From IMG/VR virus record IMGVR_UViG_3300035181_002344: 64,000 nucleotides of DNA; one strand, written 5' to 3'. The position numbers were made by a program, and so were the translations under genes. The notes beneath the pieces are model-generated. The model made no database searches, was not told the origin of the DNA, and was given only the letters and a program-made list of their open reading frames with translations. The DNA is from a virus. Within the stretch, counting starts at the first letter, position 1. Each line of letters begins with the position of its first letter. Below are positions 6,213 to 30,661 of the stretch, piece after piece.

Positions 6213-6229
6213 TATAATTCTCCGTTGCT

Positions 6230-10063: not shown

Positions 10064-11393
10064 GTGTTCCTCGGTGTTTCATCCATTGCTCAAATGGATA
10101 TTCTGGAAAAGATATTAGTGGTATTGCGCTTCTGCCTTTATTTAGAAATCGGCCAAAGCTTAAATCGTATTTTATTGGGTCTATATCTGTTATTCTAAGC
10201 GCATAAGATACAAGGCTTCCAGCTGCAGAGCCTCTGCCTGGTCCTACTAGAATTCCATGAGTCTTAGCCCATACAACATAATCAGAAACTATTAAGAAAT
10301 AGCTAGCAAAGTTCATCTGAGTGATTATTTGAATCTCATATAGCAATCGATTTTTATATTCCGCGGGAACTTTATTTGTCCCCATTCGTTTAATAAGACC
10401 TTCTATTGCTCGTTTGCGAAATAGTTCGTCTTCATGACGAATATTTCCAAACGTCGGAATTTTATAATTACCGAACTCGAATTCAAAGCTTACTCTATCT
10501 GCTATCTCTAATGTATTATTTATAGCTTCTGGATATTGTGAAAATCTCTGTTTTAAATATTCCTCGTCGGGCAGATAGTAACCATCTCCCGGATATTTTC
10601 CAAAATCTGGATCATCTAAGGTTGTTTTCTTTCTATCGGCTAACATCATATCGTGTATAGTCACATCTTGGTCAAGCACCATATGTGTGTCGCCGGTTGC
10701 AACTGTTTTAATTTTATATTTGTCGGCGAATTCTAATATTGCTTCTCTAATAATAGCTTCCTGTCTTAACCCATGGTTCATAATCTCTAAATAAAATCTG
10801 TCGCCGAAAATTTCCTTATGCCATTTAATTACATCTTCTGGACTTTCTTTACGATGTTTATCGCAAATATGTCCATCGCTACAATCAGCGCATTCTATAG
10901 CCGTTAGTGTTTCATAGCCATCTTCGTCTTTGAATGAGATATTTCTTTGGTCCATAATAGTTTTTGATAAATTAGAGGCAAGGCATCCAGATAATACTAT
11001 TAAGCCTTCATTGTATCTGCGTAATAATTCTCTATCTATGCGAGGCTTACGATAAAACGATTCAGCTTTAAATGATTCGTTTACTAAAGTGCATAAATTC
11101 TGCCAGCCCTTTTTATTCATAGCTATCAATGTTAAATGATAGTAATGGTCTATCTTATTCTCTTTATCAAATCGCGAACGATTAGCAACATAAGCTTCCA
11201 TTCCTAAAATAGGCTTAATATCAACGGCTTTCATTGTTTTGTAAAATTCAACTGCTCCAGATAATGTTCCATGATCAGTTAAAGCAATTGCCGGGTATTT
11301 TAGTTCTTTTGCTCGTTTTGCTAAATCTGGAATCTTGGCAACACTATCCATCGTAGAGAATGTCGTGTGCTGATGTAGATTTACGAAGTTCAT
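10056..11393 (-). CDS. dnaE: DNA polymerase III alpha subunit, N-terminal part (PHP domain and start of palm)
   Basis: LHQHTTFS, TDHG, GMEAY, YHLT, SGCL, NHG, GDTH; GPGRGSAAGSLVSY; DPIKYDLSFGRFLN. Confidence 0.95.
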   Translation of the reverse strand: MNFVNLHQHTTFSTMDSVAKIPDLAKRAKELKYPAIALTDHGTLSGAVEFYKTMKAVDIKPILGMEAYVANRSRFDKENKIDHYYHLTLIAMNKKGWQNLCTLVNESFKAESFYRKPRIDRELLRRYNEGLIVLSGCLASNLSKTIMDQRNISFKDEDGYETLTAIECADCSDGHICDKHRKESPEDVIKWHKEIFGDRFYLEIMNHGLRQEAIIREAILEFADKYKIKTVATGDTHMVLDQDVTIHDMMLADRKKTTLDDPDFGKYPGDGYYLPDEEYLKQRFSQYPEAINNTLEIADRVSFEFEFGNYKIPTFGNIRHEDELFRKRAIEGLIKRMGTNKVPAEYKNRLLYEIQIITQMNFASYFLIVSDYVVWAKTHGILVGPGRGSAAGSLVSYALRITDIDPIKYDLSFGRFLNKGRSAIPLISFPEYPFEQWMKHRGTHG

Positions 11394-12506: not shown

Positions 12507-13076
12507 TTAGCGATTCAGCTTTATTTGCATTATAAATTCATCGCTGAATTCACCATTATTGTATTTGGTACAACATTTAGCGCATGCAGCGTTTACAATT
12601 CGAGAGGTTTTATTTTGAAACTGGTAGGTGTATCCGCATTTTGGACATGTGGCAACATATCGTTTTTGTGGCTGCTTGATATGTGGCAATGCTAATTTTG
12701 ACGGCGTTACATCAAGCCACTCGCACATTTTAAAAAATATCTCATTATGAGCTGATTGCTCTGACAAGATATGTGCGAATTCATGTTTAATAATATCAGC
12801 TACGGCTTTCTCGTTGTTTATTTTAATAACCGGCTCTGATATTTCAAATCTTTTCTCTCTAAAAAATGTAATTCCCGCTGAGTTAATGCGTTTGTTAAGG
12901 CTGAACGTCCAGCCCATTTCGGAGATCCCGAATTCATCCATGAGTTCTTGGATTAATTTCTTAGCTTTATCAATATTCATTGTTATCTCTGGAAATATAT
13001 CCTGCAAATATAAATTTGCAGGATACTTGGGTTTAGTATCCATGTCAATATATGACATAGTAGCATTATGATTCAA
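12507..13076 (-). CDS. SprT-like metalloprotease
   Basis: HEFAH..., H...F, followed by CPKC...CAKC Zn ribbon. Confidence 0.8.
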   Translation of the reverse strand: MNHNATMSYIDMDTKPKYPANLYLQDIFPEITMNIDKAKKLIQELMDEFGISEMGWTFSLNKRINSAGITFFREKRFEISEPVIKINNEKAVADIIKHEFAHILSEQSAHNEIFFKMCEWLDVTPSKLALPHIKQPQKRYVATCPKCGYTYQFQNKTSRIVNAACAKCCTKYNNGEFSDEFIMQIKLNR

Positions 13077-14163
13077 CGTCTAGAAGTTCGCCGGTTTGCA
13101 AATCGACTTTTTCTAGCAGATAAGGGCGAGTTTTTTGCCAAATCTCTTCTAAAAGCTCAGGCTTCGCTTTTAATTTAAGCCGCGCCATATTCAATCCATT
13201 ACCTAACGATTGCTCTCCATAATAGTAGTAGTTACCTTTCATTATAACAACGCCTGTTTTAACAGCGAGATTTAGTTTATCAGCTTCAATAGAAAATCCT
13301 TCGCCGGGTATAAATAAAAACGACTCTTTGAGAAACGGAACACCAAGTTTATTCTTGTCGCCGAAAATTGTTACTATCAAACCAATAAATTGATCCTTGC
13401 TATCATATAATTCTTTGTCGATGGAGAATTTCAATGCAGTGTGCGGATAGAATTTCATTGCGTTACCACCGGTATATTTTCTGCCGATGGATTTCATCAT
13501 TCCACCCATGCTGACGATATTTTCGCGCATTTGATTAATATAAATAATAGAGCATTTATTATCATTAGCCGGGCCAACAATTCCTTCTAAATGTCTAGAT
13601 AGCCTACGTGCTAATTCTCCCACTGAATCCTTACCATTCTCAGCTTCATATGTGCGCTGAGTCCCTAAAGCAGATACAGAGTCACAGACTACTATGTTAA
13701 CTGCTCCGCTTTTAACATAGATATTGATAGCATCGAAAGCTTGTTCTCCGTAGTCTGGAATGATCAGATGAAATAGATCTTCGCGTGTATAGTCAATGCC
13801 AAACGCTTTTTTAGCGTATTTTGCATCGAAGGATCGTTCAGCATCGCACCACATGCCTGGCATGTTATCGGCGTTTAGCCAGCCTACTATTTGCTCAGCT
13901 AATGATGATTTGCCGCATGATTCCATGCCGAAGAAGTTATATAGTTTTCCGAGAGCAAAGCCACTATCTGGCCCCGTGTATCTACCGGATAAGATATAGT
14001 TAAGACTCGGTAACGGTAACTCTTTTCTTGAGACCACCATATCTTCTACGCGATCATAGTATAGAGTAGCCTCTGTGTGTAAGTTTAGCAATTCTGCTTT
14101 GGCGAGGGCCAAAGCAGAATTATTCGCGGTTGCTGTAGTTTCTTTGTTTGTTCTCTTAGCCAT
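13066..14163 (-). CDS. recA: RecA/UvsX-like recombinase (likely start ATG 14163; ORF track start 14229)
   Basis: GMESCGKS Walker A, DAE, PDYGEQA, VCDSVSAL, INQMRE, TGGNAMKFY, KNK, G..YYYG. Confidence 0.95.
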   Translation of the reverse strand: MAKRTNKETTATANNSALALAKAELLNLHTEATLYYDRVEDMVVSRKELPLPSLNYILSGRYTGPDSGFALGKLYNFFGMESCGKSSLAEQIVGWLNADNMPGMWCDAERSFDAKYAKKAFGIDYTREDLFHLIIPDYGEQAFDAINIYVKSGAVNIVVCDSVSALGTQRTYEAENGKDSVGELARRLSRHLEGIVGPANDNKCSIIYINQMRENIVSMGGMMKSIGRKYTGGNAMKFYPHTALKFSIDKELYDSKDQFIGLIVTIFGDKNKLGVPFLKESFLFIPGEGFSIEADKLNLAVKTGVVIMKGNYYYYGEQSLGNGLNMARLKLKAKPELLEEIWQKTRPYLLEKVDLQTGELLDVES

Positions 14164-14221
14164 TGTGATTCCGTTGGAGTGAATATCGTATATAATTTGT
14201 TTGCTGAGGTTAGTGACTAGT

Positions 14222-14328
14222 CTTTTCAATCACTTTAATCTCCTATCTCTAGGGGAGTCGGCGTTGTCTAGTCGTCGGTTGTTATAACGCGAGGGCTTTA
14301 GACGAAAACTAGCGAACGCGTCGACTTT
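14222..14328. repeat. Structured repeat unit, copy 1 (conserved header, short hairpin, long hairpin)
   Basis: TTTTCAATCACTTTAATCTCCTATCTCTAGGGGAGTCGGC followed by an interrupted stem closing at CGACTT; header recurs at 14801. Confidence 0.7.
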
Positions 14329-14573: not shown

Positions 14574-14780
14574 TTAGTCTTTACTTTTTTCTTCGACTTT
14601 TATAAGTTCATTTACATAATTGATAATCTCTTCATCAGTATCAAAGGAATCAATTACCGTTGGTTCTGTATCTGCGTCTGTTGGTAATTCAGTTAGTGTA
14701 TATTTGCGATTTTCGTATACACTTATATTAAACTTTTCCTTTAATACATTGATTGCTTCTTCGAATGTTGTAATTTCCAT
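14574..14780 (-). CDS. Small acidic hypothetical protein
   Basis: 68 aa with GGAG RBS. Confidence 0.65.
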   Translation of the reverse strand: MEITTFEEAINVLKEKFNISVYENRKYTLTELPTDADTEPTVIDSFDTDEEIINYVNELIKVEEKSKD

Positions 14781-14800
14781 AATATGTCTCCATTTATTTA

Positions 14801-14882
14801 TTTTCTAATCACTTTAATTCCTATAACTAGGGGTGTCGGCTTAGCAACTGAATTTAAAATCATTAGTCAGCGTTAGCTGACA
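14801..14882. repeat. Structured repeat unit, copy 2
   Basis: TTTTCTAATCACTTTAATTCCTATAACTAGGGGTGTCGGCT...AGCTGACA; same header as 14222, different hairpin body. Confidence 0.7.
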
Positions 14883-14975
14883 TTCAACTTGACTAAAAAA
14901 CAGCCCTCTTGTCAGAGCTGTAATTAGCATTGGTAAAAATGCCATTTTGTGGGACAGAAATGCTGTTTTTTACGA

Positions 14976-14992
14976 TTGGCATGGATTTTGGT
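14976..14992 (+). promoter_or_regulatory. Possible sigma54-type promoter for hsp20
   Basis: TTGGCATGGATTTTGGT versus consensus YTGGCACG-N4-TTGCW; -12 GC is GG. Confidence 0.4.
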
Positions 14993-15049
14993 AATTGCGA
15001 GATACAAAACAACTAATTAAATAACAAACTAATCAAAAGGAGGTTACTT

Positions 15050-15391
15050 ATGATACACAAATATTTCTACGCATTTTCTTCTTCTAATTTTAATTATCCA
15101 GCAACCTTTTCTCCAAAAATAGATGTTTCTGAGGAAGAAGACAAAATCAACATTATTGCCGAAATTCCTGGCGTAAAGAAACAAGATGTTAAAATTACAT
15201 TAGAGGATGATATTTTAACTATCGAGGGAGAAAAGAAACAAGGATCTGAAAAGTCTCTTAGCTTCAAACGTAGCTTTACTCTGCCTGCAGAAGTTGACGG
15301 GGAAAAAGTAGAAGCTAAGATTGAAGATGGAATATTGAATATCTCGTTTAAAAAATTAGAACCGCGTAGAAAAATAATAGAGCTGGTTTAA
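15050..15391 (+). CDS. Small heat-shock protein (Hsp20/alpha-crystallin)
   Basis: PKIDVSE, AEIPGVKK.DVKITL....LTIEGEKK, FKRSFTLP, AKIEDGIL; strong AGGAGG RBS. Confidence 0.95.
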   Translation: MIHKYFYAFSSSNFNYPATFSPKIDVSEEEDKINIIAEIPGVKKQDVKITLEDDILTIEGEKKQGSEKSLSFKRSFTLPAEVDGEKVEAKIEDGILNISFKKLEPRRKIIELV

Positions 15392-19556: not shown

Positions 19557-20090
19557 TTAATCTTGAGTTGGTAATATCCGAGTGATATTTTTCATTTCAC
19601 TCATAGTTGCGTTCGCTAACACTTCAAGATTTGAAGCAATAGAGCGAAGTTTTTTTAGCTGTAACTCAAAGAATTCAACTGTTATTTTGCCAAGTTCAAC
19701 CTCTACATAGTCATTTACGTATTCACCTCTGGCTAGAGATTCTGCCTTGGTTCTGGTTTTTATCGTTCTATCACTACTTAATAACCTCGCAGATTTATCT
19801 TCGATTTGTTTAGTAACAAAAGCAGATAGAGTTTCTGAACTGAATTTTAATTCAGAATGTATATCAGCACACATTTCTATTTTTCTAGATATATCGCTGA
19901 TAAGATATTTAAGTGTGGCAAAATCTGGTTTTTCTGGAATTGGCACAGAAAAATATAGTGTCCACTCTCTAATGCTTTTGCCTTTGAATTTAATTTGCGT
20001 TGTAAAAAACTGCGAGTTTCTACCAAAATTCTCGAAATGAGCTATGTTGGTTTCGCTTATGGCTGTATTTAAATTTTTATTTTCTTCCAT
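19557..20090 (-). CDS. Helical hypothetical protein (likely start MEENK at 20090)
   Basis: ORF-track GTG start falls inside a hairpin; GAGG RBS precedes ATG 20090. Confidence 0.6.
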   Translation of the reverse strand: MEENKNLNTAISETNIAHFENFGRNSQFFTTQIKFKGKSIREWTLYFSVPIPEKPDFATLKYLISDISRKIEMCADIHSELKFSSETLSAFVTKQIEDKSARLLSSDRTIKTRTKAESLARGEYVNDYVEVELGKITVEFFELQLKKLRSIASNLEVLANATMSEMKNITRILPTQD

Positions 20091-20109
20091 TGTAAAATCC
20101 TCTGTTTTC

Positions 20110-20326
20110 CAACATGCCTCCACTTTGCGATGGAGGCTTATGGACTACCTCATCTCTGTTGTCTTTTAAACGAGAAGTCCTTTCTCGTTTTAGTCGCTTG
20201 AATGAATTTGCATTCAAGTGAGCATCAGCGTTAGTTCCCTATGCTCGTTCTTCCCTAGCGTCGTGAACTAATTATATAGCCAGCACGAGCAATTTCGTGA
20301 ACAGACCATATAATTAGCACGCGCTA
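20110..20326 (-). ncRNA. Candidate ~215-nt structured RNA
   Basis: 71-nt interrupted hairpin (20256-20326) with G-U pairs on minus strand, followed by four hairpins; possible GGACU/AGUCC pseudoknot. Confidence 0.65.
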
Positions 20327-20908
20327 TTTAATTTCATAGAAATGAGCTTTGTCGAATTCAAATAATTGTCTTGCATATATCAAGACTATGAATTCCTCGT
20401 ATGTTAAAGAGAAATCTTCGGTTGGATTTAATTCTTCTGGGCGAATTTCAAGTACTATATTTGCTGGTTTTAACCGAAGTTTAATAACTTGACGTTTTGT
20501 TTTCTTCTTAAATAAATTACCTAAAGCTTTTTCTAATGTCGGCGGAAAAAATTTCATGTCTATTTCTGAAGATATAAAATGCTTAGCTTTATATTCTTGC
20601 AATTTCTCAATTAATTCATTCTTCAGATTTGTTGACGACATATATACTTTAGGCGTTGGAATAACAAACTCTGGCTTATATTTATCTTGTATAAACTCTT
20701 TACCATAGATTTTTTCTACTTTGCTAACAATCGCTGCCTTGCTTTTAACTTGATCATGTACCCAAAAAATATCATGCTGACTAGCACTATCTTTATCTGG
20801 TAAATTACTAACATCATATAATCCAAATGGAATTCCGATATTTTCAAATGTTTGTCTTACGGTATCCATGTCAATATCGGATAAATTACTTGTAAATACT
20901 AGTATCAT
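20324..20908 (-). CDS. Hypothetical protein
   Basis: 194-aa ORF, start overlaps upstream stop. Confidence 0.65.
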   Translation of the reverse strand: MILVFTSNLSDIDMDTVRQTFENIGIPFGLYDVSNLPDKDSASQHDIFWVHDQVKSKAAIVSKVEKIYGKEFIQDKYKPEFVIPTPKVYMSSTNLKNELIEKLQEYKAKHFISSEIDMKFFPPTLEKALGNLFKKKTKRQVIKLRLKPANIVLEIRPEELNPTEDFSLTYEEFIVLIYARQLFEFDKAHFYEIK

Positions 20909-21753
20909 TATTCCACCGTATTAAATATTTCGACCATAGTAACGCTTAACATCTTACCTAAAATAGCTCTATAAACAGCCTCTGGATTATTGTATTTGTC
21001 CACAGTTGGTATTCTAAAATCATATACAGGCCTGTTTACAATAACCGGAGCTGGAGTTTTTCTTGTTCTTTTACTTGTTTTCTTTTGAATAGTTTGTATT
21101 TCGACGGATTCTGCTGTTTCTTTCTCTAAAGTTGTTTCTTCGCTTAAATTCTCAATTTCGGTTTTCAATGATACTCCAAATAATGTCGTTAATCCATCCC
21201 AAGTTCTAAATTTTAGATTTTCTAGTTTTAGCACCTCTGCACTAATTGATTTTGGCAGGTTTGAATAATACTCCCATATCCCATTTGCAAACATTTCTTC
21301 TGTGCCATTTGGATCCTTAAAGGTTGGAATAAGGCCTAAGTCGATATCAAGGCCAAGAGTACCGCCGATTACATTAATATGATTTGTTAAGAATTGGTCG
21401 GTATTTTCAAATGTAATAGCTTGTATATATTCAGGATCGATTTTTCCTATTACACGGTAATACTCAATATCGCCTATTTCAGTTGGTTCGATTGATAACT
21501 TTAGCTGCGGGAAATTAATATTATTCCATACATTTTGATTAGCATTATCATTGTAGTTTACAAGGTTTAATTTCTTTCCTTCAATCATAATGCGAACAAT
21601 AGATTCATAAATCTTTTGTCGGTTATTTTTTGTTGCACCTGAAAGATAGAAGCCAAAACGCTTTGTATCATCATGGTATTTTATGCTATATCTTCCTGGA
21701 GTAATTTCTCCTGCTCTATCTGCGACTCTGCATTTATACATTGTTGGCTCCAA
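20908..21753 (-). CDS. Hypothetical protein
   Basis: 281-aa ORF in RT operon tail. Confidence 0.65.
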   Translation of the reverse strand: MEPTMYKCRVADRAGEITPGRYSIKYHDDTKRFGFYLSGATKNNRQKIYESIVRIMIEGKKLNLVNYNDNANQNVWNNINFPQLKLSIEPTEIGDIEYYRVIGKIDPEYIQAITFENTDQFLTNHINVIGGTLGLDIDLGLIPTFKDPNGTEEMFANGIWEYYSNLPKSISAEVLKLENLKFRTWDGLTTLFGVSLKTEIENLSEETTLEKETAESVEIQTIQKKTSKRTRKTPAPVIVNRPVYDFRIPTVDKYNNPEAVYRAILGKMLSVTMVEIFNTVE

Positions 21754-22112
21754 AAATTAATTAATATTTGTGCTTGTATTTGCGCAACTCTTATTATACT
21801 TGCATCTATATCTAAAACAAAGTTTGTGGCAATGACAATTATATCGTCTTCTTTTGCTCTAGCAATATCATTTTTAACGATATTAAGCAAAGACTCTTTG
21901 TCTGAAGATATTTTTAATTCTTCGCCTACACGATATAGATAATACTTGTTTCCGTCTTCTGTTTCTTCTTCGAAGAATATATAATAAGTTGCTTTTCGAT
22001 CGCCTATTAGCGTATTTACTATAGAATTAAAAAGCCGAGGATTTTCTCGGCCTTTGAATTCCATTAATTGCTCAAAATACGCCCACATAGGCATATTAAT
22101 AAGAGCATTCAT
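21681..22112 (-). CDS. Hypothetical protein
   Basis: 143-aa ORF starting 1 nt after the upstream stop. Confidence 0.6.
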   Translation of the reverse strand: MNALINMPMWAYFEQLMEFKGRENPRLFNSIVNTLIGDRKATYYIFFEEETEDGNKYYLYRVGEELKISSDKESLLNIVKNDIARAKEDDIIVIATNFVLDIDASIIRVAQIQAQILINFWSQQCINAESQIEQEKLLQEDIA

Positions 22113-22113
22113 T

Positions 22114-22587
22114 TTAATCTCCTTCTACAATAGCATTTTCTACGCCAAGGATAATATTTTGGTTATCTTCAATAAAACGCTTTAACATCAAAAATTCTCC
22201 CATTGTTAATGGCACTGATACTTTAAGATCACCAGAGAAGAATGTTATAAAAAATGTTCCCGGATTTTGTCCTGATGCTATCATTAATTTTTTGTAAATA
22301 GCTTGTTCGTCTGCTTTGCCTGCATTTGGATTATGCACTAAGTCTAATTTCATTTCTTGTCCGCGTTGATAATTATATATAGCATTATAGAATAGCGGAT
22401 AGTCATTTGAACTAAAAGCAAATGTTATTTTTTTGCTCCAATCATAGACTTTGTCTTTTCCTGGTATTGCGTTTGCGACATTAAATAATAAAGCACCTTG
22501 TTTTTGTAGAAAGCCATTATTTGCTTTGGCTCTTATAATATCGCATTGTAAGGCTGCACTTTTTTTGTAGATTTGAAAATGATTCAT
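22114..22587 (-). CDS. Whirly-like ssDNA-binding protein
   Basis: FQIYKKSAAL (KGKAAL-like), YDWSKK, HNP, K.L, VPLTMGEF and terminal ILG occur in the order and spacing of plant Whirly motifs. Confidence 0.65.
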   Translation of the reverse strand: MNHFQIYKKSAALQCDIIRAKANNGFLQKQGALLFNVANAIPGKDKVYDWSKKITFAFSSNDYPLFYNAIYNYQRGQEMKLDLVHNPNAGKADEQAIYKKLMIASGQNPGTFFITFFSGDLKVSVPLTMGEFLMLKRFIEDNQNIILGVENAIVEGD

Positions 22588-22588
22588 C

Positions 22589-22849
22589 TTATTCTTCCTT
22601 ATTTGTATTATCTTGTTTATAGCTATCGGGTCCCATTAATTTATATAAGTTTTCATGTGGGACTGGTTCTCTTTTGCCTGTGAATTTTCCTCGTTTTTCT
22701 GGATCTAAATGATCACGAGAATAGAAGATAGCGCCACAATTTAGACAAGCTTCATCTGCGTCAAAAGCTTTCCATATTTTGTTAACTTTGTCGCTACCAC
22801 AAAACGGGCATTTGTTATCGAGAATATTTGGTGTTGTGTCAGTTGTCAT
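22589..22849 (-). CDS. Small Zn-ribbon protein
   Basis: CPFCGS...CLNCG; start overlaps RT stop. Confidence 0.7.
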   Translation of the reverse strand: MTTDTTPNILDNKCPFCGSDKVNKIWKAFDADEACLNCGAIFYSRDHLDPEKRGKFTGKREPVPHENLYKLMGPDSYKQDNTNKEE

Positions 22850-23687
22850 TTAAGATTCTCCGTGCAAGTTTTTGTAAATAAAAATAGTTTTTCTTGTTAT
22901 CTGCTAGATTAAGTTGTTCGATTTTTCCACGTATATGCGGATTGATCTGACGAATATTAATTAGCTCTTTGATAATGTTCTGAATATATTGACGCTCAAT
23001 ATTTCGTTTAACATTAACCACGATGCCTAAAACTAATTGTCTTTGATAATAAGGCATCACTTTACTTTTTCGTAAGTTTAGTTCGAAACCATATCGCTTA
23101 CAAATATCGTTAATAATCGATATAGTTTCTTTTGGAACAGAGTTACCAGAGATATATAGATTATCTCCATAATTTGAATAACTCCATTGGTTTCGATCGC
23201 ATATTTCCTGTATACTAACATCAATCGGTTGTCGTATAGCATTAGCGATATGTGGAGATGTTATGAAACCTTGTGGAAGTTTTCCATTGTACGTTAATAA
23301 TTCAATAAAATCTTGTAAATCAATGTTAAGCAAATTAAGTAACTCGGGGATTTTCTGATTATAAACAAATAGCCCGATTAGATGATCTTTCGTAATGTTA
23401 TCATAGAAATTCTTAATATCGGCTTCTAAAACGTATCGTTTGCCAACATGAATATTAGCACAGTCTCCCCTTGATCTTCCTTTTATCCAAGCATAGCTTG
23501 CATGATGAATATTAAAAACATTGTTATCAATGAAATAGTCAAGAATATATTTCTGTGCCTTTTTATATTCTGAATTTGGAGCAATAATATGACGACGTTT
23601 TATTTTGCCTTTCTTTTTTCTATGCTGCACATACGTTGATACATAATTTGCTTTATTGGCAAGTATATTCTTTATAAGCTGACGCAT
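22839..23687 (-). CDS. Retron-like reverse transcriptase with YGDN catalytic motif
   Basis: R.I.AP...K..Q, CANIH (region X-like), DIKNFY, LPQG..TSP..AN, YSNYGDNLYISG, GF.LN..K, VLGIVVN (VTG-like region Y). Confidence 0.88.
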   Translation of the reverse strand: MRQLIKNILANKANYVSTYVQHRKKKGKIKRRHIIAPNSEYKKAQKYILDYFIDNNVFNIHHASYAWIKGRSRGDCANIHVGKRYVLEADIKNFYDNITKDHLIGLFVYNQKIPELLNLLNIDLQDFIELLTYNGKLPQGFITSPHIANAIRQPIDVSIQEICDRNQWSYSNYGDNLYISGNSVPKETISIINDICKRYGFELNLRKSKVMPYYQRQLVLGIVVNVKRNIERQYIQNIIKELINIRQINPHIRGKIEQLNLADNKKNYFYLQKLARRILNDN

Positions 23688-23692
23688 GTTAT

Positions 23693-24499
23693 TTACGATG
23701 CTTTTTGTAATAAAGTTGCTAAATCAAACTCTTTTTCCACGAATGGGTTAGTATTCCATTCAATAAATCTCACTTTGCCGGTTCTATTAAATAATACCAT
23801 GTCATATTTAAGGTCGTTGTCAACATACATAGAATAGACCATATTAGTTATCAGTGTTCCGGCGAGTAAATTTACAGCAAGAGATTGTGGATTGAGTAAT
23901 GCATTGACGGCACAATTTTGTCTTTGTTCTCTTTCGACTGCTTCTTCTTTCTCTGCTTCTTCATTATTAAATTCATGCGGATAAACATCAACAACTGTTC
24001 TTGACTTAGTAATTAACGAGTCATAATAAACTATTTGTCCAAATGTATCGGTATTTCCGCAGCTTAACCATGCTATTGATTGAGAATTAGTAAACCGATT
24101 TCTTGATCTAACAAATTCATTAATTATTAAGCGTGTACGGATATTATCTACAGTATCTATAATCAAATATGTGTCTGGATTGCTATAATATCCTGATCTA
24201 TATGGATCGCAGATAGAATAGATATTATCTTTATCTAAAAAGCTATTTATATATGATACCTTTACTCCAAAAGCAAAGCCATAGCGTTTAGCTAATACTT
24301 CTGCTTTATATTCTCCAATATCATCGACAACAAAATTTTGCCGATTACAATTTTTCTCTTCTACTTTATCTGCGTCCATAATTATAATATCCGGAGCATT
24401 AGGAAGATGACTAGCCATTCTAATGATATTTGGTATAGCATATCCTCCTGTTCCGCCAGCACCAACAAATAATATTGTGCTTCTTTTTGAGACGACCAT
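23693..24499 (-). CDS. E1-like ThiF family adenylyltransferase (PRTRC-type)
   Basis: GAGGTG, DADKVEEKN.NRQNF, KAEVLA.RY, IDTVDN..R, GN; candidate catalytic Cys in QNCA.....QSL..N. Confidence 0.92.
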   Translation of the reverse strand: MVVSKRSTILFVGAGGTGGYAIPNIIRMASHLPNAPDIIIMDADKVEEKNCNRQNFVVDDIGEYKAEVLAKRYGFAFGVKVSYINSFLDKDNIYSICDPYRSGYYSNPDTYLIIDTVDNIRTRLIINEFVRSRNRFTNSQSIAWLSCGNTDTFGQIVYYDSLITKSRTVVDVYPHEFNNEEAEKEEAVEREQRQNCAVNALLNPQSLAVNLLAGTLITNMVYSMYVDNDLKYDMVLFNRTGKVRFIEWNTNPFVEKEFDLATLLQKAS

Positions 24500-24501
24500 A
24501 T

Positions 24502-25467
24502 TTATCTTCTCCTGTTTTTGTAATAATCCTCGTATCCGAAGCCATATTGCATTGGATCTAAATAAGTGTGTATGCTTTCACTTGCAGGTGGATCTCCATA
24601 GATTGGTCTTGTGGATATTATTTCGTCGTCAAATAAATCGCCTTGAATAACTCTATCTTTAGTTTTGTAATCATTATTATTTGCTAGCCATTCGTTTACT
24701 CTATTTTCATAGAGACGATTAGACAACTTGTTTTCATAATCACCAAACATAGTAATATCAAATTCGTGTTTCCACAAAGGCTCAAAAACATCTTCTAAAT
24801 TAAGATCAACTTTTTTATTTCCGAGTGCAAATCTTATTTGATATGTCGGATATATTTTAAATATATCGCCAATTACTAAGTGAATACTTTCTAAATTTCG
24901 ATGATCGGCATCATCAACTGCTGAAAATCTACCAGTCATTGTATGATGAGAATGTGCTTGTACTACTAAAATATTATCTTTATCCGACGGAAAATTATCA
25001 TGTTCTATATCCCATTCTACAAGAGCGCCTGAGATAATTTGTTTTGGAATCCAGAAAAAGAATTCTTGTCTTATTTTATTCCAATAAATTCGCACATAAA
25101 CTTCTGTCTTATATTTTTGATATACCACACGGAACCATTCCAATATATCTAAAAACATTTTAGCTGGAACTTTTGGCACCTTTAATTGTATGCCTTCTTT
25201 TTGGTATTCGCCATTTACTATTCCCTTAAAATCATAACTAACTTCTTTAATAACAAAACGAGCTAAATCAGTTTCTTTAACAGTATATATACCGTCGTTT
25301 TGAATAAGCGTAGTTGAATTTACTCCCGGTTGAAAAGTATATGTTCCAATTTGTAGTACATGGCTATTATTTATTTGATTCCGTAGTTCATTTATTGCTT
25401 GAAGTTCACTATCTGTGAAACCATTGTTTTGATTTTTCTTAGCCATATTTTGTTCTCCTTTTACCAT
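24502..25467 (-). CDS. JAB/MPN metalloprotease (deubiquitinase-like; PRTRC protein A type)
   Basis: PKVP...F, TEV....W, P.Q, HSHHTM..FSAVDD.D JAMM motif. Confidence 0.88.
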   Translation of the reverse strand: MVKGEQNMAKKNQNNGFTDSELQAINELRNQINNSHVLQIGTYTFQPGVNSTTLIQNDGIYTVKETDLARFVIKEVSYDFKGIVNGEYQKEGIQLKVPKVPAKMFLDILEWFRVVYQKYKTEVYVRIYWNKIRQEFFFWIPKQIISGALVEWDIEHDNFPSDKDNILVVQAHSHHTMTGRFSAVDDADHRNLESIHLVIGDIFKIYPTYQIRFALGNKKVDLNLEDVFEPLWKHEFDITMFGDYENKLSNRLYENRVNEWLANNNDYKTKDRVIQGDLFDDEIISTRPIYGDPPASESIHTYLDPMQYGFGYEDYYKNRRR

Positions 25468-26120
25468 AATTTTATTGCTTCTTTAATTGTTTTTCCTGAC
25501 ATTTGTCCACTTCTTAATATGTGAGAGGCCTCAACCCATTCTTGCTCTGATTGAAATGTAATGTTATTGACACGGCGGATATCATCCATATTAACCAAAT
25601 CCGTATTTCTTTCGGCATTAAACCACATATTAATAATTGTATTTAGTTCATGTAAACCATGAATACTTCTTAATTCTCTAGTTAAAACATCTCCCCAGCA
25701 CAAACGTGCATCACCATAAACATTATTTAAGCGAACTTGGTATATTCTGGTATTTTCTCGTGGCGGATTAAAACTACTAAATATCGACGTATTAATAACT
25801 TTATACATATTATTCTCTACCCGCAAATCAAATAAGAAATACAGATACGGATAGTGTAAATGATATTGTATATTAGAATATGTAAAATCAAGATATTGCG
25901 TATTTCTACACACTAATACCTTCATGTTTACATCTTTAACTTCATACCATACTATCCATAGAGGCATAATCATACTTGATTCTTCTTTAATACTAAATAA
26001 TTGCCTAAGCTCATCTATGGAAACTATTTTAGGTTCGTAAATATTGGCGCTTCCTTGTTTATTGATATTGTCTATAATCGCTATACGATCATATACTGTT
26101 ATATTAGCTATTTTGTTCAT
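25461..26120 (-). CDS. Prokaryotic E2 (family D; PRTRC protein B type)
   Basis: P.L.F.F, NVYGDARLCWG catalytic Cys motif, WFN...N.DL. Confidence 0.75.
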   Translation of the reverse strand: MNKIANITVYDRIAIIDNINKQGSANIYEPKIVSIDELRQLFSIKEESSMIMPLWIVWYEVKDVNMKVLVCRNTQYLDFTYSNIQYHLHYPYLYFLFDLRVENNMYKVINTSIFSSFNPPRENTRIYQVRLNNVYGDARLCWGDVLTRELRSIHGLHELNTIINMWFNAERNTDLVNMDDIRRVNNITFQSEQEWVEASHILRSGQMSGKTIKEAIKLW

Positions 26121-26739
26121 CTGATAACTCCCTGATTAAAATCTTATGTATAAAATCCAGCGCTATGAAATATGATAATAAAGAAAAAGCAACCCTATGA
26201 TTCCATATTGGAGATGAAGTAATAATAAGCGGATATCGAGTCTGCTCTTCTAATCCTGCATTTACAATTTGTATTAAGTAATTTGGTGCAGTATTATCAT
26301 CGCCGATATATTTCATAAAATCATTACGCAGAACATTCCATGCTTCTGCATATTTTGCTTTACCTTCACTTGTATCAACGATATTGTAAAATGTTGATGC
26401 TATAAAATTAGTAATAAAACGTGATAGCACTAATTGTAGCTCATAGCCCCTAGCTCGTGTTGTTGTTGCAGATGTTGAAAATGAACATCCGCCAATATTT
26501 AAGACTGTTTGATGATGAGCTGCTGAATATTGTTCAATAAGAGGATTCATATTTTCTCTATAATATTTTTCAACAGCTTTAATAATTGTAAACATTATTC
26601 TTCTGTTGTAACTTGCGGTTAATTGCCATTGGTTGCGTGTAGTAATAAATCTTTTATCTAATGCGTATTTAACCAGCAGCAATAGCCGTAAGTTTGTTGA
26701 TACGTTTTGCATGTTAGCAATTACTTTGTCGTCATACAT
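26104..26739 (-). CDS. Hypothetical protein within Ubl cassette
   Basis: 211-aa helical ORF overlapping both neighbours. Confidence 0.65.
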   Translation of the reverse strand: MYDDKVIANMQNVSTNLRLLLLVKYALDKRFITTRNQWQLTASYNRRIMFTIIKAVEKYYRENMNPLIEQYSAAHHQTVLNIGGCSFSTSATTTRARGYELQLVLSRFITNFIASTFYNIVDTSEGKAKYAEAWNVLRNDFMKYIGDDNTAPNYLIQIVNAGLEEQTRYPLIITSSPIWNHRVAFSLLSYFIALDFIHKILIRELSDEQNS

Positions 26740-26959
26740 AGTTTTTACTCATTTTAAATGTTGATTGAACATAACGTAATCTATCAGTAATAATATAATT
26801 GTAGTTTATTTCAAAATTAGTTAGACTTTTTGCTTCTTCCGCTGTCATTTCTGCGATTCTCCGTAATGATGGATCAGCACATAACTCATATAAGAGTTTA
26901 AGTTGAGGATTATCTTGTAATCCTGCGAATTTGGTTAAAATATCTTGTCCGGTTAACAT
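26732..26959 (-). CDS. Small hypothetical protein within Ubl cassette (likely start 26959)
   Basis: GGAG RBS before ATG 26959. Confidence 0.55.
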   Translation of the reverse strand: MLTGQDILTKFAGLQDNPQLKLLYELCADPSLRRIAEMTAEEAKSLTNFEINYNYIITDRLRYVQSTFKMSKNYV

Positions 26960-26973
26960 AAGATCTCCGTAAT

Positions 26974-27005
26974 AAAAAAGCCCCTCCACATAACGTAGAG
27001 GGACT
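26974..27005 (-). terminator. Intrinsic terminator directly after the Ubl gene
   Basis: Minus strand AGUCCCUC..GAGGGGCU followed by U tract. Confidence 0.7.
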
Positions 27006-27016
27006 TTGGTTGTGGA

Positions 27017-27205
27017 TTATTTACCAAGTTTGCCAGCTTTCATTTTGAAATTGATAACTTTGTTTCCAGAATCATCTGTATAAACTTCTGCTACTGTGTC
27101 ATCAATTTCTGGTGCATGACCACGCAATGCAGCTTTAGCAGCATCTACACTAATGTCACCTGGAACTGTTGCTGTCATATCAGCATATTTTACGATTGTT
27201 GCCAT
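27017..27205 (-). CDS. Ubiquitin-like protein (PRTRC protein C-like), ends ...AGKLG-K
   Basis: 62 aa; P....V...K..L....PE, terminal INFKMKAGKLGK; context with E1, E2 and JAB; AAGGAG RBS. Confidence 0.72.
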   Translation of the reverse strand: MATIVKYADMTATVPGDISVDAAKAALRGHAPEIDDTVAEVYTDDSGNKVINFKMKAGKLGK

Positions 27206-27219
27206 GGATACGTTACTCC

Positions 27220-27516
27220 TTAATTTTGTGCGTTATTAATTAATGATTGAAATACGCTTGCTGTTAACGGTTCTCTTCTTGGTTGTTGAGATTCCGTTTG
27301 CTCACGTTGTACGTAATTATTTAAGATATCTTGGAATGTTTCCTGAGTTAAGACAAGGGTGTCATTAAGCTGATCGTTGACATTATTCAAATTGTCTTCC
27401 GACATTTGATCATTGTCGTCAAGACGATATTCTACTGTTTCAACGCCGCTGAATTCGAGTACGCCACCTGGAACGTATAACTCAAGAACGCTTCCTTCTA
27501 ATCTGAAGCTAATCAT
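27220..27516 (-). CDS. Acidic hypothetical protein
   Basis: 98 aa with GGAGG RBS. Confidence 0.65.
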   Translation of the reverse strand: MISFRLEGSVLELYVPGGVLEFSGVETVEYRLDDNDQMSEDNLNNVNDQLNDTLVLTQETFQDILNNYVQREQTESQQPRREPLTASVFQSLINNAQN

Positions 27517-27568
27517 TTGTTACCTCCGATAATATTGGATTTGTTAATTAGATTTTTTTTACTGTATT

Positions 27569-30500
27569 TTAATAATCCACATCTTCTTCGGCGAATTCTG
27601 CCTCTTCTTCATCTATTTCTTCAATAACTGAAGATGATTCAAGAATATCGTTGATATACGGGCGAATTATTTTACAGTATCCTATTTTAGATAGATGATT
27701 ATCATCTATGTTGTTTAGATTATCAACAAGGCCTGCTATATATTCTGAATCTCCGCCTGAATGAATTCTAGAAATTGTAATTATGGTTTTATCCTCTTTC
27801 GCTAATTTCATGGCTTGTAAATATAAATCAGCATCTTCAGGAGTCATATCTAGCATATTTGTTAATATAGGCTTGATTAACTCTACTTGCTCTTCTCCAA
27901 AATTAGATAAAGCAAATACATCATAACCAGAAGCCCCACCTTCTATATGTTTAACTCCTTCAATAACCGTATCTTGCAGAATGCGCGAAGTGATATGCTG
28001 TAGGTACATCATCTTATGTTTATTGATATTACCATTAGCATACATCCATTCAATTGCAGTATGGATTCTCCATAAGTCTACAGTCCCCATTCCTATTCTT
28101 GTTTTGGCTATTGCTGCGTCAGCTAATATATCAGCAAATTTATCGCGTGAAATTTCATAATATTTGAATGGTTTCTCTTCAACATCTAGAAATTTCTCGT
28201 TTTTGCTAATTTCGCTTTTGATATATTGTGTTATCCAACGTTTTTCATAACCTAACAAATAGTCAGGATTAGCAGAATATTTAGCTAATTCTTGTTGAAT
28301 AGATTGATGCAGAGGCACAGCAATAGGATATAAGTCGCCATCTGTATCTGATTTGTCAAGCAGGATATCTATCGTATTACGCAGAACAGCGCCGGCAGTA
28401 TATTCTGGCAACACAATCTGATTGATATCCATTTTGTATTCTTTCTTAAGATATTTAGCAAACTGATTAAGCGTAAGAACTTCTCTTGTATGGAATTGAA
28501 ATCGCCAAATAACTGGGTTTCTCACTCCAATTTCATAGATACGTTTAAGACCCGTTTGCTTTTTGAATGCTTGGATTTGTTTAATGAGTCTTTGGTCAAG
28601 AACAACTGTCGTTCTTCTTGGCACATAGACACTTGCTAGTTGTTTGAGATTTCCTCCAGGTAATTCTGGGGAAGTAACTTGAGATAATGCGGCTCTTTTA
28701 GAAAATATCTCATGATTGATATAAAAGATATACTTCTTGAGATTTTCTAAAAGCTGTTCTTTTGTCGCTTCTCGTTTGTAAAGTTTTCGAAGGGTCATTA
28801 ATATAAATTGAGAAAATGTAACAAATTGCGGATAAGTAACTGTACCCGCCCCAACATATGTCATTTGCTCAATAATATTAAAGCTTGGAAATCTTATATA
28901 TCTATTCTCATATTTTACATAGAATCCTTGGTTAAATGGATTAAGTAGGATATTATTAGTATTATATGAGACACTCCATGACGATGGATTAAAATAACTC
29001 CTCGATATTTTATCTTGAAAAACTGGGTCGTCCCATTGATATACTGGAGTTCCATCATTATATCGGTTGAAAGATCTCAATTTGAGGAGTTGCTTTAAAA
29101 TTCCTTTGTTTGATCCGTTTATGTAATTGTCATAGATTAGATTTGCGGCTTTTTCAAGATGATGATTATTTGCATTATACATATATTTCATCGTTTCTTG
29201 CATTACACGTACACCATTACTTTTACAATCATTACTAAGATCGGTAACGCCAAAACTCATAAGACCAAAGTAAACCTTATAAGTTTTGCCCATATAGACC
29301 CAGTCAACTTGTTGTAATTCTTGGCACATAATGTTGACTTCATCTTCGGGATAATCATTAGCATTTAATGTGATAGAATCGTCTGGGCCATTTTCTGATA
29401 AAACAAAGTTTAACCAGCTCATTTTAATGCCATTGTGTCCGCTTTTAAGGGAAGTTGGACCAATGACCATCTGGACTGGTATTTTATCTTTGCCGAATTG
29501 TTTTGGTGGTATAATATATCCTAGATCCTCTCTTGGATGCGTAACACCTTTAAGTCCATAATCTGATATTAATCTAGCAACTCCCATTTTGGCTACAATC
29601 TTCACGATAATTTTATAAGAGTTGTACATGGGGATTATATCTTCGATCACTCCACCTTTGTAATTAATATCATATATAACTGCAGGGAATCCTTCGAGAT
29701 CATAAGCTATTATATCACCAGGATTTAATACATCGCCTTTTTGAGCTAAAATGACATCTTTGTTGGGAGTCATAAAAGTGCGGCGAACAAAGAATTCTTT
29801 TTCGGCTAATTGCTTATTAATGAGTATCTCGCCAACGGATAATGTAAATTTACCTAGCGGCGATTGATCTTCAGTTTTGTCTGTTGTTATTGGTATAAAA
29901 ACAGTATAAGCATTAATCTTTTCTTTATTATTACTTTCAAATAAATGATCCTGTTCTGGCTCTAATGGCTGTAATAATTCACTGGTATAGTGCAATCTTA
30001 GTCTTTCTGGCAAAGATGACTTAGGCTCATATATTGAAGTAATTGCGTTATCTGTAGAAGAATATCCTGCGGCTTGTATTTGCTTACCAAACAAGTTACA
30101 GTAAATTCCTTCGGATAATTCATCTACGCGAATTGGATCATTAAATAGCTTAGAATATTTCCTAATATCTTCTTCGGATTTTGGAATAGCGGATTCCCAT
30201 AATGCTCTACCAATACAATCGTAATATTCCTTTTTATTATTCTTTTGTCTGAATGTTTTTACTATGCGAATACGATGCTCAATTTTTAGACGATTATTAT
30301 AACTGACAGGCTCTATTTTCATTAAGCCATCCAAAACTTTAGAAACATCTTTTCTAAGGAATTTATGATGTATATATTTATAGTCAGATCGCCTGAAATA
30401 TTCTAGTCTATCCATTACAACAAGGATTAGCATTTTATCTACATCAAGAATGCATTCATCGTCGTCTAAATAGAAATATGGAGATAAACGAATATCGTCT

Positions 30501-30661
30501 GCTGTCAATTTTGGAATGATAACTGGAGAATTAAACTGATTATTAAAAATTAACTCATAATGATCTCCGTTACGCATACGGAATAAAGATCCCGCATAAA
30601 AATTTAATACATTATCCAAGCTATTAATTTTATCTAAACGTTCGAGTATTTTTTTATACAT
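27569..30661 (-). CDS. Single-polypeptide two-barrel (DPBB) RNA polymerase
   Basis: Beta-like LISDYGLKGV and MVIGP; beta'-like RNP and catalytic DTDGD. Confidence 0.75.
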   Translation of the reverse strand: MYKKILERLDKINSLDNVLNFYAGSLFRMRNGDHYELIFNNQFNSPVIIPKLTADDIRLSPYFYLDDDECILDVDKMLILVVMDRLEYFRRSDYKYIHHKFLRKDVSKVLDGLMKIEPVSYNNRLKIEHRIRIVKTFRQKNNKKEYYDCIGRALWESAIPKSEEDIRKYSKLFNDPIRVDELSEGIYCNLFGKQIQAAGYSSTDNAITSIYEPKSSLPERLRLHYTSELLQPLEPEQDHLFESNNKEKINAYTVFIPITTDKTEDQSPLGKFTLSVGEILINKQLAEKEFFVRRTFMTPNKDVILAQKGDVLNPGDIIAYDLEGFPAVIYDINYKGGVIEDIIPMYNSYKIIVKIVAKMGVARLISDYGLKGVTHPREDLGYIIPPKQFGKDKIPVQMVIGPTSLKSGHNGIKMSWLNFVLSENGPDDSITLNANDYPEDEVNIMCQELQQVDWVYMGKTYKVYFGLMSFGVTDLSNDCKSNGVRVMQETMKYMYNANNHHLEKAANLIYDNYINGSNKGILKQLLKLRSFNRYNDGTPVYQWDDPVFQDKISRSYFNPSSWSVSYNTNNILLNPFNQGFYVKYENRYIRFPSFNIIEQMTYVGAGTVTYPQFVTFSQFILMTLRKLYKREATKEQLLENLKKYIFYINHEIFSKRAALSQVTSPELPGGNLKQLASVYVPRRTTVVLDQRLIKQIQAFKKQTGLKRIYEIGVRNPVIWRFQFHTREVLTLNQFAKYLKKEYKMDINQIVLPEYTAGAVLRNTIDILLDKSDTDGDLYPIAVPLHQSIQQELAKYSANPDYLLGYEKRWITQYIKSEISKNEKFLDVEEKPFKYYEISRDKFADILADAAIAKTRIGMGTVDLWRIHTAIEWMYANGNINKHKMMYLQHITSRILQDTVIEGVKHIEGGASGYDVFALSNFGEEQVELIKPILTNMLDMTPEDADLYLQAMKLAKEDKTIITISRIHSGGDSEYIAGLVDNLNNIDDNHLSKIGYCKIIRPYINDILESSSVIEEIDEEEAEFAEEDVDY

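Follow-up and report, generated by a model that had tools for sequence, protein, structure and literature searches.

Gene content and organisation of the locus

The stretch of DNA analysed in this study, hereafter the window, is 64,000 nt long and belongs to an IMG/VR virus record (IMGVR_UViG_3300035181_002344) of 154 kb, ~75% complete, from sediment or microbial-mat samples. Analysis of the minus strand from 27205 to 22114 revealed a tightly packed gene series encoding a ubiquitin-like protein (Ubl), two uncharacterised proteins, an E2-like enzyme, a JAB metallopeptidase, a ThiF-type E1, a reverse transcriptase (RT), a Zn ribbon and a Whirly-family protein. The features are listed in Table 1. 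From the 85-aa ORF onward, neighbouring ORFs as called overlap by 7–17 nt or are separated by gaps of 1–5 nt.

An earlier note on this DNA, made from the sequence alone, had described a co-oriented operon with overlaps or gaps of at most 5 nt from the first uncharacterised ORF and an RT ATG 5 nt past the ThiF stop, and the ORF coordinates agree on both points. Its view of Ubl, E2, JAB and E1 as a complete set, which we find to be PRTRC-like, is upheld by profiles, the Ubl family alignment and the modelled E2 fold, and its naming of a retron-like RT and a Whirly-like protein by the profile scores given below.

Table 1. Features of the operon and its flanking hairpins in the window.
Feature	Position	Strand	Basis
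Ubl, 62 aa, PRTRC_C-type; C-terminus ...AGKLGK, conserved Gly61	27017..27205	-	Family alignment and model
14-bp GC-rich hairpin with T-run, directly past the Ubl stop	26977..27007	-	Terminator scan
Small ORF, 85 aa from GTG or ~75 aa from next ATG	26732..26989	-	Uncharacterised
Uncharacterised ORF, 211 aa; position between Ubl and E2 conserved	26104..26739	-	Own HMM
E2-like conjugating enzyme, 219 aa; candidate catalytic Cys141 in LCWG	25461..26120	-	Profiles, fold
JAB/MPN metallopeptidase, 321 aa, PRTRC_A-like	24502..25467	-	PRTRC_A 3.6e-11, Prok-JAB 2e-4
ThiF-type E1 adenylating enzyme, 268 aa; GxGGTGG, invariant Cys196	23693..24499	-	Profiles and alignments
Retron-clade RT (by HMM score), 282 aa; motif C YGDN, region X CANIH, region Y VLG	22839..23687	-	Profiles
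Four-Cys Zn-ribbon protein, 86 aa	22589..22849	-	CxxC...CxxC; weak Lar-like matches
Whirly-family ssDNA-binding protein, 157 aa	22114..22587	-	PF08536 2e-13, above cut-off
Terminator-like hairpin GGCCGAG-loop-CUCGGC with U5, 60–80 nt past the Whirly stop	22025..22062	-

The hairpin behind the Ubl gene may act as a partial terminator or attenuator that would raise Ubl output relative to the enzymes. The transcription unit probably ends at the hairpin behind the Whirly gene; the nucleotide sequence of this hairpin is nearly invariant in comparison with two other loci (L002 and L003). Together, the two hairpins fit a single transcription unit with an excess of Ubl.

Genes for RNR, RecA (13066–14229) and DnaE lie just downstream of the module, which is also flanked by a primase-helicase gene. 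In the window, L012, L045, L048 and L051, RecA lies 5–9 kb beyond the RT on its downstream side, and in L071, L073 and L109 the RT is followed by RuvB. The surroundings of the module make up a DNA replication/recombination block and are not obviously an anti-defence island.

The conjugation cassette

Profile searches with the window copy of the Ubl gave no direct family match. In the Ubl family alignment (19 members) Gly61 is invariant and G-x-K-G stands at the C-terminus or 1–3 residues ahead of it; nine of the 19 members matched PRTRC_C (TIGR03738), the best at 4.7e-12. The AF2 model of the Ubl (pLDDT 84.7) is predicted to be beta-grasp-like, with a beta-beta-alpha-beta-beta order, and Foldseek returned weak matches alone, to protein L, GB1 and ubiquitin. 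For the 85-aa ORF no Pfam or NCBIfam match was found; L009 and L012 carry ORFs at this position that align to it weakly, and a family with its own HMM was built. The 211-aa ORF matched nothing in Pfam, NCBIfam or the ESM Atlas. Its own HMM, trained on the copies in the window, L009 and L012, gave L002 a score of 3e-68 and found no member beyond these lineages.

The E2 matched Prok-E2_D (0.018) and PRTRC_B (0.016; 14.6 bits against a cut-off of 131) and carries the motif NVYGDARLCWG, and its homologue in L012 reached a profile score of 1.8e-4. Cys141 is invariant across 33 relatives. The E2 model (pLDDT 80) has a predicted UBC fold over residues 48–210, and UBC-type E2 enzymes were the best 13 and most of the top 27 matches to it in VIA (Z 5.5–4.5). 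The modelled fold and the invariant cysteine support E2 identity, not membership of the PRTRC_B family specifically.

The window copy of the JAB protein contains HSHH..S..D, and HSH...S..D..D is conserved in 45 relatives; its PRTRC_A match scores 43 bits against a curated cut-off of 101.8. JAB is probably the enzyme that trims the residue after the Ubl glycine and/or removes conjugates. The E1 matched Pfam ThiF at 7e-19 and PRTRC_ThiF at 4.4e-24, with 85.1 bits against a curated cut-off of 144.75. Judged by sequence, Ubl, E2, JAB and E1 form a complete, distant PRTRC-type cassette, whose members are relatives of PRTRC proteins and not equivalogs.

The reverse transcriptase

The RT matched RVT_1 at 5.5e-18, PADLOC retron RT models at 2e-44 to 1e-29 (RT_III-A being the best, at 2e-44) and the NCBIfam retron St85 family at 5e-39, under the cut-off of 235 for that family. 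By HMM score it falls within the retron clade. Canonical NAxxH and VTG motifs are kept in the cassette-linked RTs of L009, L012, L023 and L024. At motif C, YGDN was found in the RTs of the window, P0001, L005 and L007; every other cassette-linked RT has YADD or YVDD there. Within the YGDN subclade (window, L005 and L007), RT identity is 47–49%. The first aspartic acid of motif C, Asp90 of motif A and LPQG are all intact in the window RT. With YGDN instead of YxDD, its catalysis may be altered; in some viral RNA polymerases, GDN serves as a functional catalytic motif.

A search for an msr-msd RNA found nothing in Rfam, whether at the gathering threshold or with E<=5. The space upstream of the RT amounts to the 5-nt gap in the window and is taken up by overlaps or coding sequence in several relatives. 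Structured RNA was observed at 20124–20323 and 22000–22110, and neither can be tied to the RT.

Zn ribbon, Whirly and SpoVG

The Zn-ribbon gene overlaps the 3' end of the RT gene by 11 nt and is conserved in L005 and L007 with 49% identity. It occupies the place held by SpoVG in most other lineages; in L009 and L012, SpoVG matches lie at the corresponding site. Across the lineages, SpoVG, Whirly or both come after the RT in the majority. PF08536 aligned to the Whirly protein over profile positions 1–135 of 136 with 50.8 bits against a cut-off of 23. Since the phage has its own canonical OB-fold SSB, encoded separately at 57770–58231, Whirly is an extra binder. The phage versions of Whirly and SpoVG differ from the known proteins in being small and in occurring together with a canonical SSB.

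Comparison of loci chosen by ThiF or RT revealed SpoVG or Whirly at 10 of the 20 loci with both RT and cassette, compared with none of 27 cassette-only and none of 65 RT-only loci. Neither SpoVG nor Whirly was found at 80 related bacterial loci. The Whirly family comprises 1263 cluster representatives. One sampled member (L233) has SpoVG and Whirly near RNR, without RT and without cassette, another (L230) has Whirly with ClpP and RecA, and a look-up that started from Whirly turned up a further full module (L232).

Recurrence and limits of the RT-cassette linkage

The cassette adjoins a retron-like RT in at least 12 divergent phage lineages, with RT identity down to 25–33%. The closest RT homologues (96%, 49%, 33% and 31% identity) all adjoin ThiF and JAB. 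Among non-redundant IMG/VR cassette loci, 20 of 47 have a retron-like RT within 9 kb, compared with five of 68 bacterial loci (Fisher p 1.5e-5), and the RTs at these five loci are long and group-II-like in appearance. At least four further cassette records have an RT 7–18 kb away. In four lineages (L005, L009, L024 and L051), the ThiF and RT genes overlap at their stop and start. The linkage is kept despite rearrangement in L092 and L121, where the RT lies upstream of the cassette, and despite an inserted HNH gene in L023 and L068; in L045 and L048 SpoVG-Whirly lies upstream.

The link between RT and cassette is not obligatory. RVT_1 had no match in five complete phage genomes (206–318 kb) that carry the cassette, and in the isolate Bacillus phage KLEB27-3 no RT lies near PRTRC_A and ThiF. 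RT is absent at 63 of the 68 bacterial cassette loci, and no cassette was found within 9 kb at 65 related phage RT loci. In the group of L022, L026, L029 and L031, E1 and RT are separated by 4–6 kb of opposite-strand genes. The conservation of neighbours that the earlier note proposed to check is borne out for the RT-cassette linkage across many divergent phage lineages.

Analysis of 17 shared loci revealed that the RT and ThiF trees are congruent at all supported nodes, the outcome that the same note had put forward as a test of its proposal. E1 and RT have co-diverged, a pattern that is also expected from simple vertical co-inheritance inside one phage clade. In the RT tree the cassette-linked RTs do not form one clean clade: eight label changes were counted, at least three of them forced by well-supported branches.

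Co-folding of the RT with its partners, likewise proposed earlier, gave a weak signal for E1 (median ipSAE 0.32; runs 0.61, 0.00 and 0.32; best control 0.00). In the calibration of the tool, 58 of 80 solved complexes and two of 110 mismatched pairs came up to this mark, and the tool itself warns that most passes at <=0.60 are wrong. No contacts were common to the three runs (reported agreement at least 0%; partner pLDDT >=84). The co-fold gives weak support to an E1-RT association and is the one hint that Ubl may modify the RT.

Comparison with known systems

PRTRC systems (TIGR03735–TIGR03742) occur on plasmids and integrative conjugative elements as cassettes with ParB-related and ThiF-related proteins. 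The window cassette has the same order of the four core families, namely Ubl (C, ending in Gly), E2 (B), JAB (A) and ThiF, and PRTRC models are the best NCBIfam matches for three of its four genes. It differs in that every score is under the NCBIfam curated cut-off, and in being carried by a large phage and joined to an RT, a Zn ribbon or SpoVG, and Whirly. ParB_N had no match in the 154-kb, ~75% complete record, and PRTRC D, E and F had none among the two uncharacterised ORFs or their positional equivalents.

Bacterial E1/E2/JAB systems, namely Bil, Bub and CBASS Cap2/Cap3, have roles in phage conflict, and in CBASS the conjugation machinery regulates a nucleotide-polymerising enzyme. The window cassette shares their E1-E2-JAB(-Ubl) logic, and structural matches to the modelled E2 include BubCD and CdnG-E2. 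PADLOC gave weak E1-E2 matches to ThiF that cover only residues 6–88 (the Rossmann N-terminus; best 2e-6), and no match of E2, JAB or Ubl to Bil/Bub/CBASS-type models. Unlike these systems, the window cassette is phage-encoded, has E1 and E2 as separate proteins and is linked to an RT.

Retrons consist of an RT, an msr-msd ncRNA and an effector. The window resembles them in its retron-clade RT with recognisable region X and Y motifs, and differs in the YGDN at motif C, the phage replication setting, the absence of a detected ncRNA and the lack of upstream intergenic space. Mestre et al. 2020 (PMC7736814) list retron types I–XIII, and ThiF, ubiquitin, SpoVG and Whirly are not among the listed partners. 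Our literature search found nothing on the combination of a Ubl conjugation cassette with an RT, consistent with the earlier note, which knew of no described system of this kind. Nor was anything found that joins SpoVG, reverse transcriptase and retron, and the papers found on Whirly, reverse transcriptase and phage described no such system.

Proposed role and alternative explanations

The reading we favour, to which we give roughly even chances, is that large environmental phages carry a conserved, co-selected accessory module whose Ubl conjugation acts on an RT/ssDNA pathway. What Ubl is attached to, what the RT makes and what the module does are proposed as follows. The PRTRC-type set (Ubl, two uncharacterised proteins, E2, JAB and E1) would be co-transcribed and co-inherited with the retron-clade RT and with small single-stranded-nucleic-acid binders encoded after it (Zn ribbon and Whirly here, SpoVG with or without Whirly in other lineages). 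JAB would trim the residue past the conserved Ubl glycine, and E1 would adenylate this glycine and hand Ubl to the E2 cysteine. Ubl would then go onto the RT, a protein bound to the RT product, or a host protein reacting to that product. The RT would make single-stranded nucleic acid, although the YGDN lineage perhaps only binds it, and Whirly, SpoVG or Zn ribbon would coat this RT-derived nucleic acid. Because the module lies just upstream of RNR, RecA and DnaE, we would have it act during host attack, in the DNA metabolism or repair of the phage, and would not class it as an abortive-infection retron of the classical kind.

A narrower claim, which we consider rather doubtful, is that Ubl conjugation and reverse transcription are one biochemical pathway in which E1 and E2 put the 62-aa Ubl on the RT or its nucleoprotein product. 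Ubl would then switch on, localise or prime ssDNA synthesis, and the Whirly- or SpoVG-coated DNA would be used for genome repair or for blunting host immunity. If true, this would be the first case of an RT tied directly to Ubl modification and would give PRTRC-type cassettes their first function. To our knowledge, these cassettes have been catalogued for about twenty years with no known function, and there is likewise no explanation for retron-clade RTs in large virulent phages. The recurrent, translationally coupled E1-RT pair offers a concrete handle on both. Should E1 and RT truly be coupled, the Ubl-type control of nucleotide polymerases known from CBASS would reach reverse transcriptases as well, and would do so on the virus side of the conflict.

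Inherited synteny with no functional coupling is a serious possibility, though on the unlikely side: RT, SpoVG and Whirly would belong, together with RNR, RecA or RuvB, DnaE polymerase and SSB, to the replication/recombination block of an old clade of large phages, with the cassette as an independent neighbour. RecA or RuvB near the RT in several lineages, the RNR, primase-helicase and DnaE genes flanking the window module, L233 and L230, the cassette standing alone in complete phage genomes and the tree congruence predicted by vertical descent are all in keeping with it. It accounts less well for the ThiF-RT overlaps in four lineages and the 5-nt gap in the window, for adjacency kept at 25–33% RT identity after local rearrangements and insertions, for the confinement of SpoVG/Whirly, among the loci compared, to those with both RT and cassette, or for the weak E1-RT co-fold support.

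It appears improbable that the module is a phage-borne immunity or exclusion system of a new retron type, in which sensing would fall to the RT together with a hidden ncRNA and the Ubl cassette would be the effector that acts on rival phages or mobile elements. The best RT scores do come from retron models, relatives keep NAxxH and VTG, phage RT matches include known prophage retrons in P2-like phages, and the bacterial conjugation systems act in phage conflict. Against this, most lineages have no non-coding space beside the RT, Rfam gave no match, a toxin-like effector is absent, the catalogued retron types lack these partners, and the module resides in large, apparently virulent phages amid replication genes.

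We think it similarly unlikely that the window-lineage RT has ceased to be a polymerase and now serves the Ubl machinery as an adaptor or scaffold that binds RNA/DNA. The replacement of YADD by YGDN is limited to the window/L005/L007 subclade and conserved there, and region Y reads VLG rather than VTG, as such a role would allow; yet the intact first aspartic acid of motif C, Asp90 and LPQG and the GDN precedent count against it, and conservation of the whole domain argues for retained activity. The fallback of the earlier note, an RT present as an unrelated insertion, is unlikely because the linkage is conserved across divergent lineages and the trees are congruent.

Genes of the operon

Analysis of the operon revealed ten minus-strand ORFs between 27205 and 22114; beginning with the second, neighbours overlap or are separated by gaps of 1-5 nt. 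This spacing and the family matches bear out the earlier note's description of a co-oriented, tightly packed operon for Ubl, E2, JAB, E1, RT, Zn ribbon and Whirly proteins. The E1 is ThiF-type (Pfam, 7e-19), and the JAB peptidase matched PRTRC_A (3.6e-11) and carries the motif HSHH..S..D. Sequence matches of the E2-like protein are weak (0.016-0.018); VIA comparison of its AF2 model (pLDDT 80) placed UBC enzymes in all of the first 13 ranks and in most of the first 27 (Z 5.5-4.5; residues 48-210), and Cys141 is invariant among 33 relatives. The 62-aa first gene had no direct family match. Its positional homologues at 19 loci form one family with G-x-K-G at the C-terminus or 1-3 residues before it, 9 of the 19 members match PRTRC protein C, and the 62-aa protein was modelled as a small beta-grasp. 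Foldseek comparison of the Ubl and E2 models with PDB gave nothing at E<=0.001. The two ORFs after the Ubl gene and their positional equivalents matched nothing in NCBIfam or Pfam; the 211-aa ORF had no usable match in the ESM Atlas, and its model is poor.

On these component identities and family matches of Ubl, E2, JAB and ThiF, the Ubl part is assigned by sequence to the PRTRC type as a distant cassette whose genes keep the canonical order C ... B, A, ThiF. It differs from the PRTRC system in that its scores all lie under the NCBIfam cut-offs and a ParB-like gene was not found in the source record (154 kb, estimated completeness 75%).

The Zn ribbon protein, with four Cys, stands in for SpoVG, which was not found in the window's record, and the Whirly protein scores above the Pfam cut-off. 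Since a separate OB-fold SSB is present, Whirly is not the only ssDNA binder of this phage. Downstream of the Ubl gene is a strong hairpin with a T-run, and a terminator-like hairpin lies 60-80 nt past the Whirly stop in a stretch almost invariant in nucleotides compared with L002, a locus whose RT is a 96% copy. Because hairpins follow both genes, the arrangement fits one transcription unit from Ubl to Whirly with Ubl made in excess. Two hairpins, one terminator-like, occur in the first ~110 nt of a predicted 143-aa ORF after Whirly, where nucleotides are nearly invariant compared with the related loci L002 and L003, synonymous sites included; for these reasons the annotated start of this ORF may be wrong. 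Its product gave a weak match to a Macro domain (ThsA macro, 1.9e-4).

Linkage of the RT to the cassette

A single-protein RT scan of IMG/VR gave no match and profiles were required. Profile scans, annotated by iterated HMMs of our own, identified 51 ThiF loci and 80 RT loci. Gene content within 8-9 kb was tallied over non-redundant loci: 10 carried the cassette, RT and SpoVG and/or Whirly, 10 the cassette and RT, 27 the cassette only and 65 the RT only. The closest homologues of the RT all adjoin ThiF and JAB; the many related phage RTs at these 65 loci, with no cassette nearby, weaken a strict one-module reading. When ten 'cassette only' records were checked whole, an RT was found 1-18 kb off in five, and the other five were complete genomes of 206-318 kb without any RT; a ThiF gene occurred elsewhere in six of ten large 'RT only' records. 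Bacterial genomes, mostly of Clostridia, provided 80 related ThiF loci: an RT lay within 9 kb at 5 of them, these RTs being long and group-II-like, and SpoVG or Whirly at none of the 80.

Full synteny is kept in L002. The 49% lineage (L005, L006) has the order E2-JAB-ThiF-RT-Zn ribbon-Whirly, and loci of the 33% (L009) and 31% (L012, a 188-kb contig) lineages have Ubl-x-x-E2-JAB-ThiF-RT-SpoVG. The RT start overlaps the ThiF stop in four lineages; the gap in the window is 5 nt. The association is kept despite an HNH insertion (L023, L068), with the RT preceding the cassette (L092, L121) and with SpoVG-Whirly upstream (L045, L048). The inserted HNH-endonuclease-like ORF lies between ThiF and RT. 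The JAB gene is in two pieces in L048 and L121, which could be insertion, intein or decay.

Comparison of the RT and ThiF trees over 17 shared loci revealed agreement at every supported node, the congruence that the earlier note had proposed as a test. In the RT tree (83 sequences) cassette-linked RTs fall in several groups, forcing at least three label changes, and in the E1 tree RT-linked lineages branch deeply at scattered points and do not make up a single clade. Support from the E1-RT co-fold was weak (median 0.32; runs 0.61, 0.00, 0.32; best control 0.00); by the calibration of the tool, more passes at this level are wrong than right.

With 1263 cluster representatives, Whirly is a large family. 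Among four members sampled, one was in a full module and one accompanied SpoVG near RNR, where neither RT nor cassette was present; the other two contexts were too short for judging. In a word-index search Whirly matched nothing but itself, the sequences of alignment A9 diverged too far for scanning of loci, and the scan with alignment A10 recovered mainly known loci; a look-up seeded with Whirly only found a further complete module (L232).

Genomic setting and interpretation

The window corresponds to bases 80263-144262 of its source record. Its minus strand carries nearly all genes, and its GC is ~33%. Sediment and microbial-mat metagenomes contain near-identical DNA; among GenBank phages no close relative was found, megablast of window 20000-28000 being unmatched. 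The module is always located in a DNA-metabolism region: RecA follows 5-9 kb further downstream in the window and four other lineages, RuvB is downstream in three lineages and ClpP close by in five. In several lineages a ClpP-like protease gene is found a few kb or less from the module or from Whirly; the window's own record has none. The window replicase is a split DnaE-type polymerase, whose ORFs could reflect an intron, an intein remnant or a genuine split. Immediately before the module is a 1030-aa protein without Pfam or PHROG family, kept only in L002. A tRNA search of the window gave nothing relevant.

The best-supported reading, held with about even confidence, is a co-selected module in which a PRTRC-type conjugation pathway would act on, or jointly with, an RT-centred single-stranded-nucleic-acid pathway. 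Its genomic setting points to a probable role of the module in the metabolism of phage DNA or its repair when the host attacks. Inherited synteny with no coupling is a tentative alternative, possible rather than probable. Part of the linkage pattern could be due to synteny preserved within an old phage clade: the module is always in a DNA-metabolism region, and the cassette of other phages and of bacteria clearly works with no RT; set beside this is the association kept through insertion and rearrangement.

Two cultured jumbo phages, Bacillus phage KLEB27-3 (RT not found near its PRTRC_A and ThiF) and Salmonella phage Arash (no RT annotation in the 11-kb stretch viewed), are possible RT-less comparison systems. 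Reading the 'structural protein' labels of Arash ThiF and its neighbouring genes as virion packaging was rejected; the published virion proteome of 116 proteins includes RNR and RNA polymerase subunits.

The combination of RT, Ubl cassette and SpoVG/Whirly was not described in the literature searched in full text, and it is absent from the Mestre et al. 2020 retron classification, the 2006 prokaryotic Ub survey and the 2021 jumbo-phage comparative review. The parts are of known kinds; their recurrent combination is new.

Coordinates of features in the window, related loci and cultured phages
Source	Feature	Position (strand)	Remark
Window	DnaE-type DNA polymerase	7273-11393 (-)	445-aa and 809-aa ORFs, 138-aa ORF between
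Window	RecA	13066-14229
Window	Strong structure, fold scan	20101-20400
Window	Intergenic hairpins	20124-20323 (-)	200 nt; ~70-nt long hairpin, four smaller
Window	Strong structure, fold scan	21951-22150
Window	Hairpins in 143-aa ORF	22000-22112 (-)
Window	RT	22839-23687 (-)
Window	Hairpin after Ubl	26977-27007
Window	1030-aa protein	27569-30661 (-)
Window	OB-fold SSB	57770-58231
L009	ClpP-like	1768-2346
L012	ClpP-like	13173-13811
L023	ClpP-like	1378-2217
L024	ClpP-like	3791-4360
L068	ClpP-like	847-1512
L230	ClpP-like	2651-3328
L023	HNH-like ORF	9096-9719
L068	HNH-like ORF	8369-9016
L048	JAB	6097-6582, 6934-7836
L121	JAB	13140-13583, 14729-15085
L068	tmRNA-like	10436-10841
KLEB27-3	PRTRC_A, ThiF	167.6-169.9 kb	OM634661.1
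Arash	Related ThiF	176-179 kb	OQ632216.1

RT motifs and search for a retron RNA

Motif C of the window RT is YGDN, common only to its 47-49% relatives, and every other cassette-linked RT has YADD or YVDD; judged on sequence, the motif is lineage-specific. Regions X and Y read CANIH and VLG; relatives have the canonical motifs NAxxH and VTG. Conversion of the RT to a non-catalytic adaptor in the window's lineage, compatible with the other readings, is improbable.

The RT belongs to the retron clade by its scores with the retron RT models of PADLOC (up to 2e-44) and with the NCBIfam retron St85 family (5e-39). A retron-like exclusion system borne by the phage is unlikely. An msr-msd-like RNA was not found (no Rfam match at gathering or E<=5), and non-coding space upstream of the RT is lacking in the window and most relatives. 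A sliding fold z-score scan gave strong structure at only two stretches; neither is upstream of the RT, and retron-like a1/a2 repeats were not seen in either. The intergenic region with the long hairpin (MFE -78.5 kcal/mol, z -7 vs shuffles) is the most structured stretch within 19.4-31.6 kb, and no tie to the RT could be made. ThiF-RT gaps were rejected as ncRNA sites, being occupied by the HNH ORF or other ORFs, as were the gaps after SpoVG in L023 and L068, which contain a tmRNA-like gene. In L068 this gene, with a tag peptide (ARAGORN), lies between SpoVG and Whirly, and the corresponding gap of L023 holds similar sequence.
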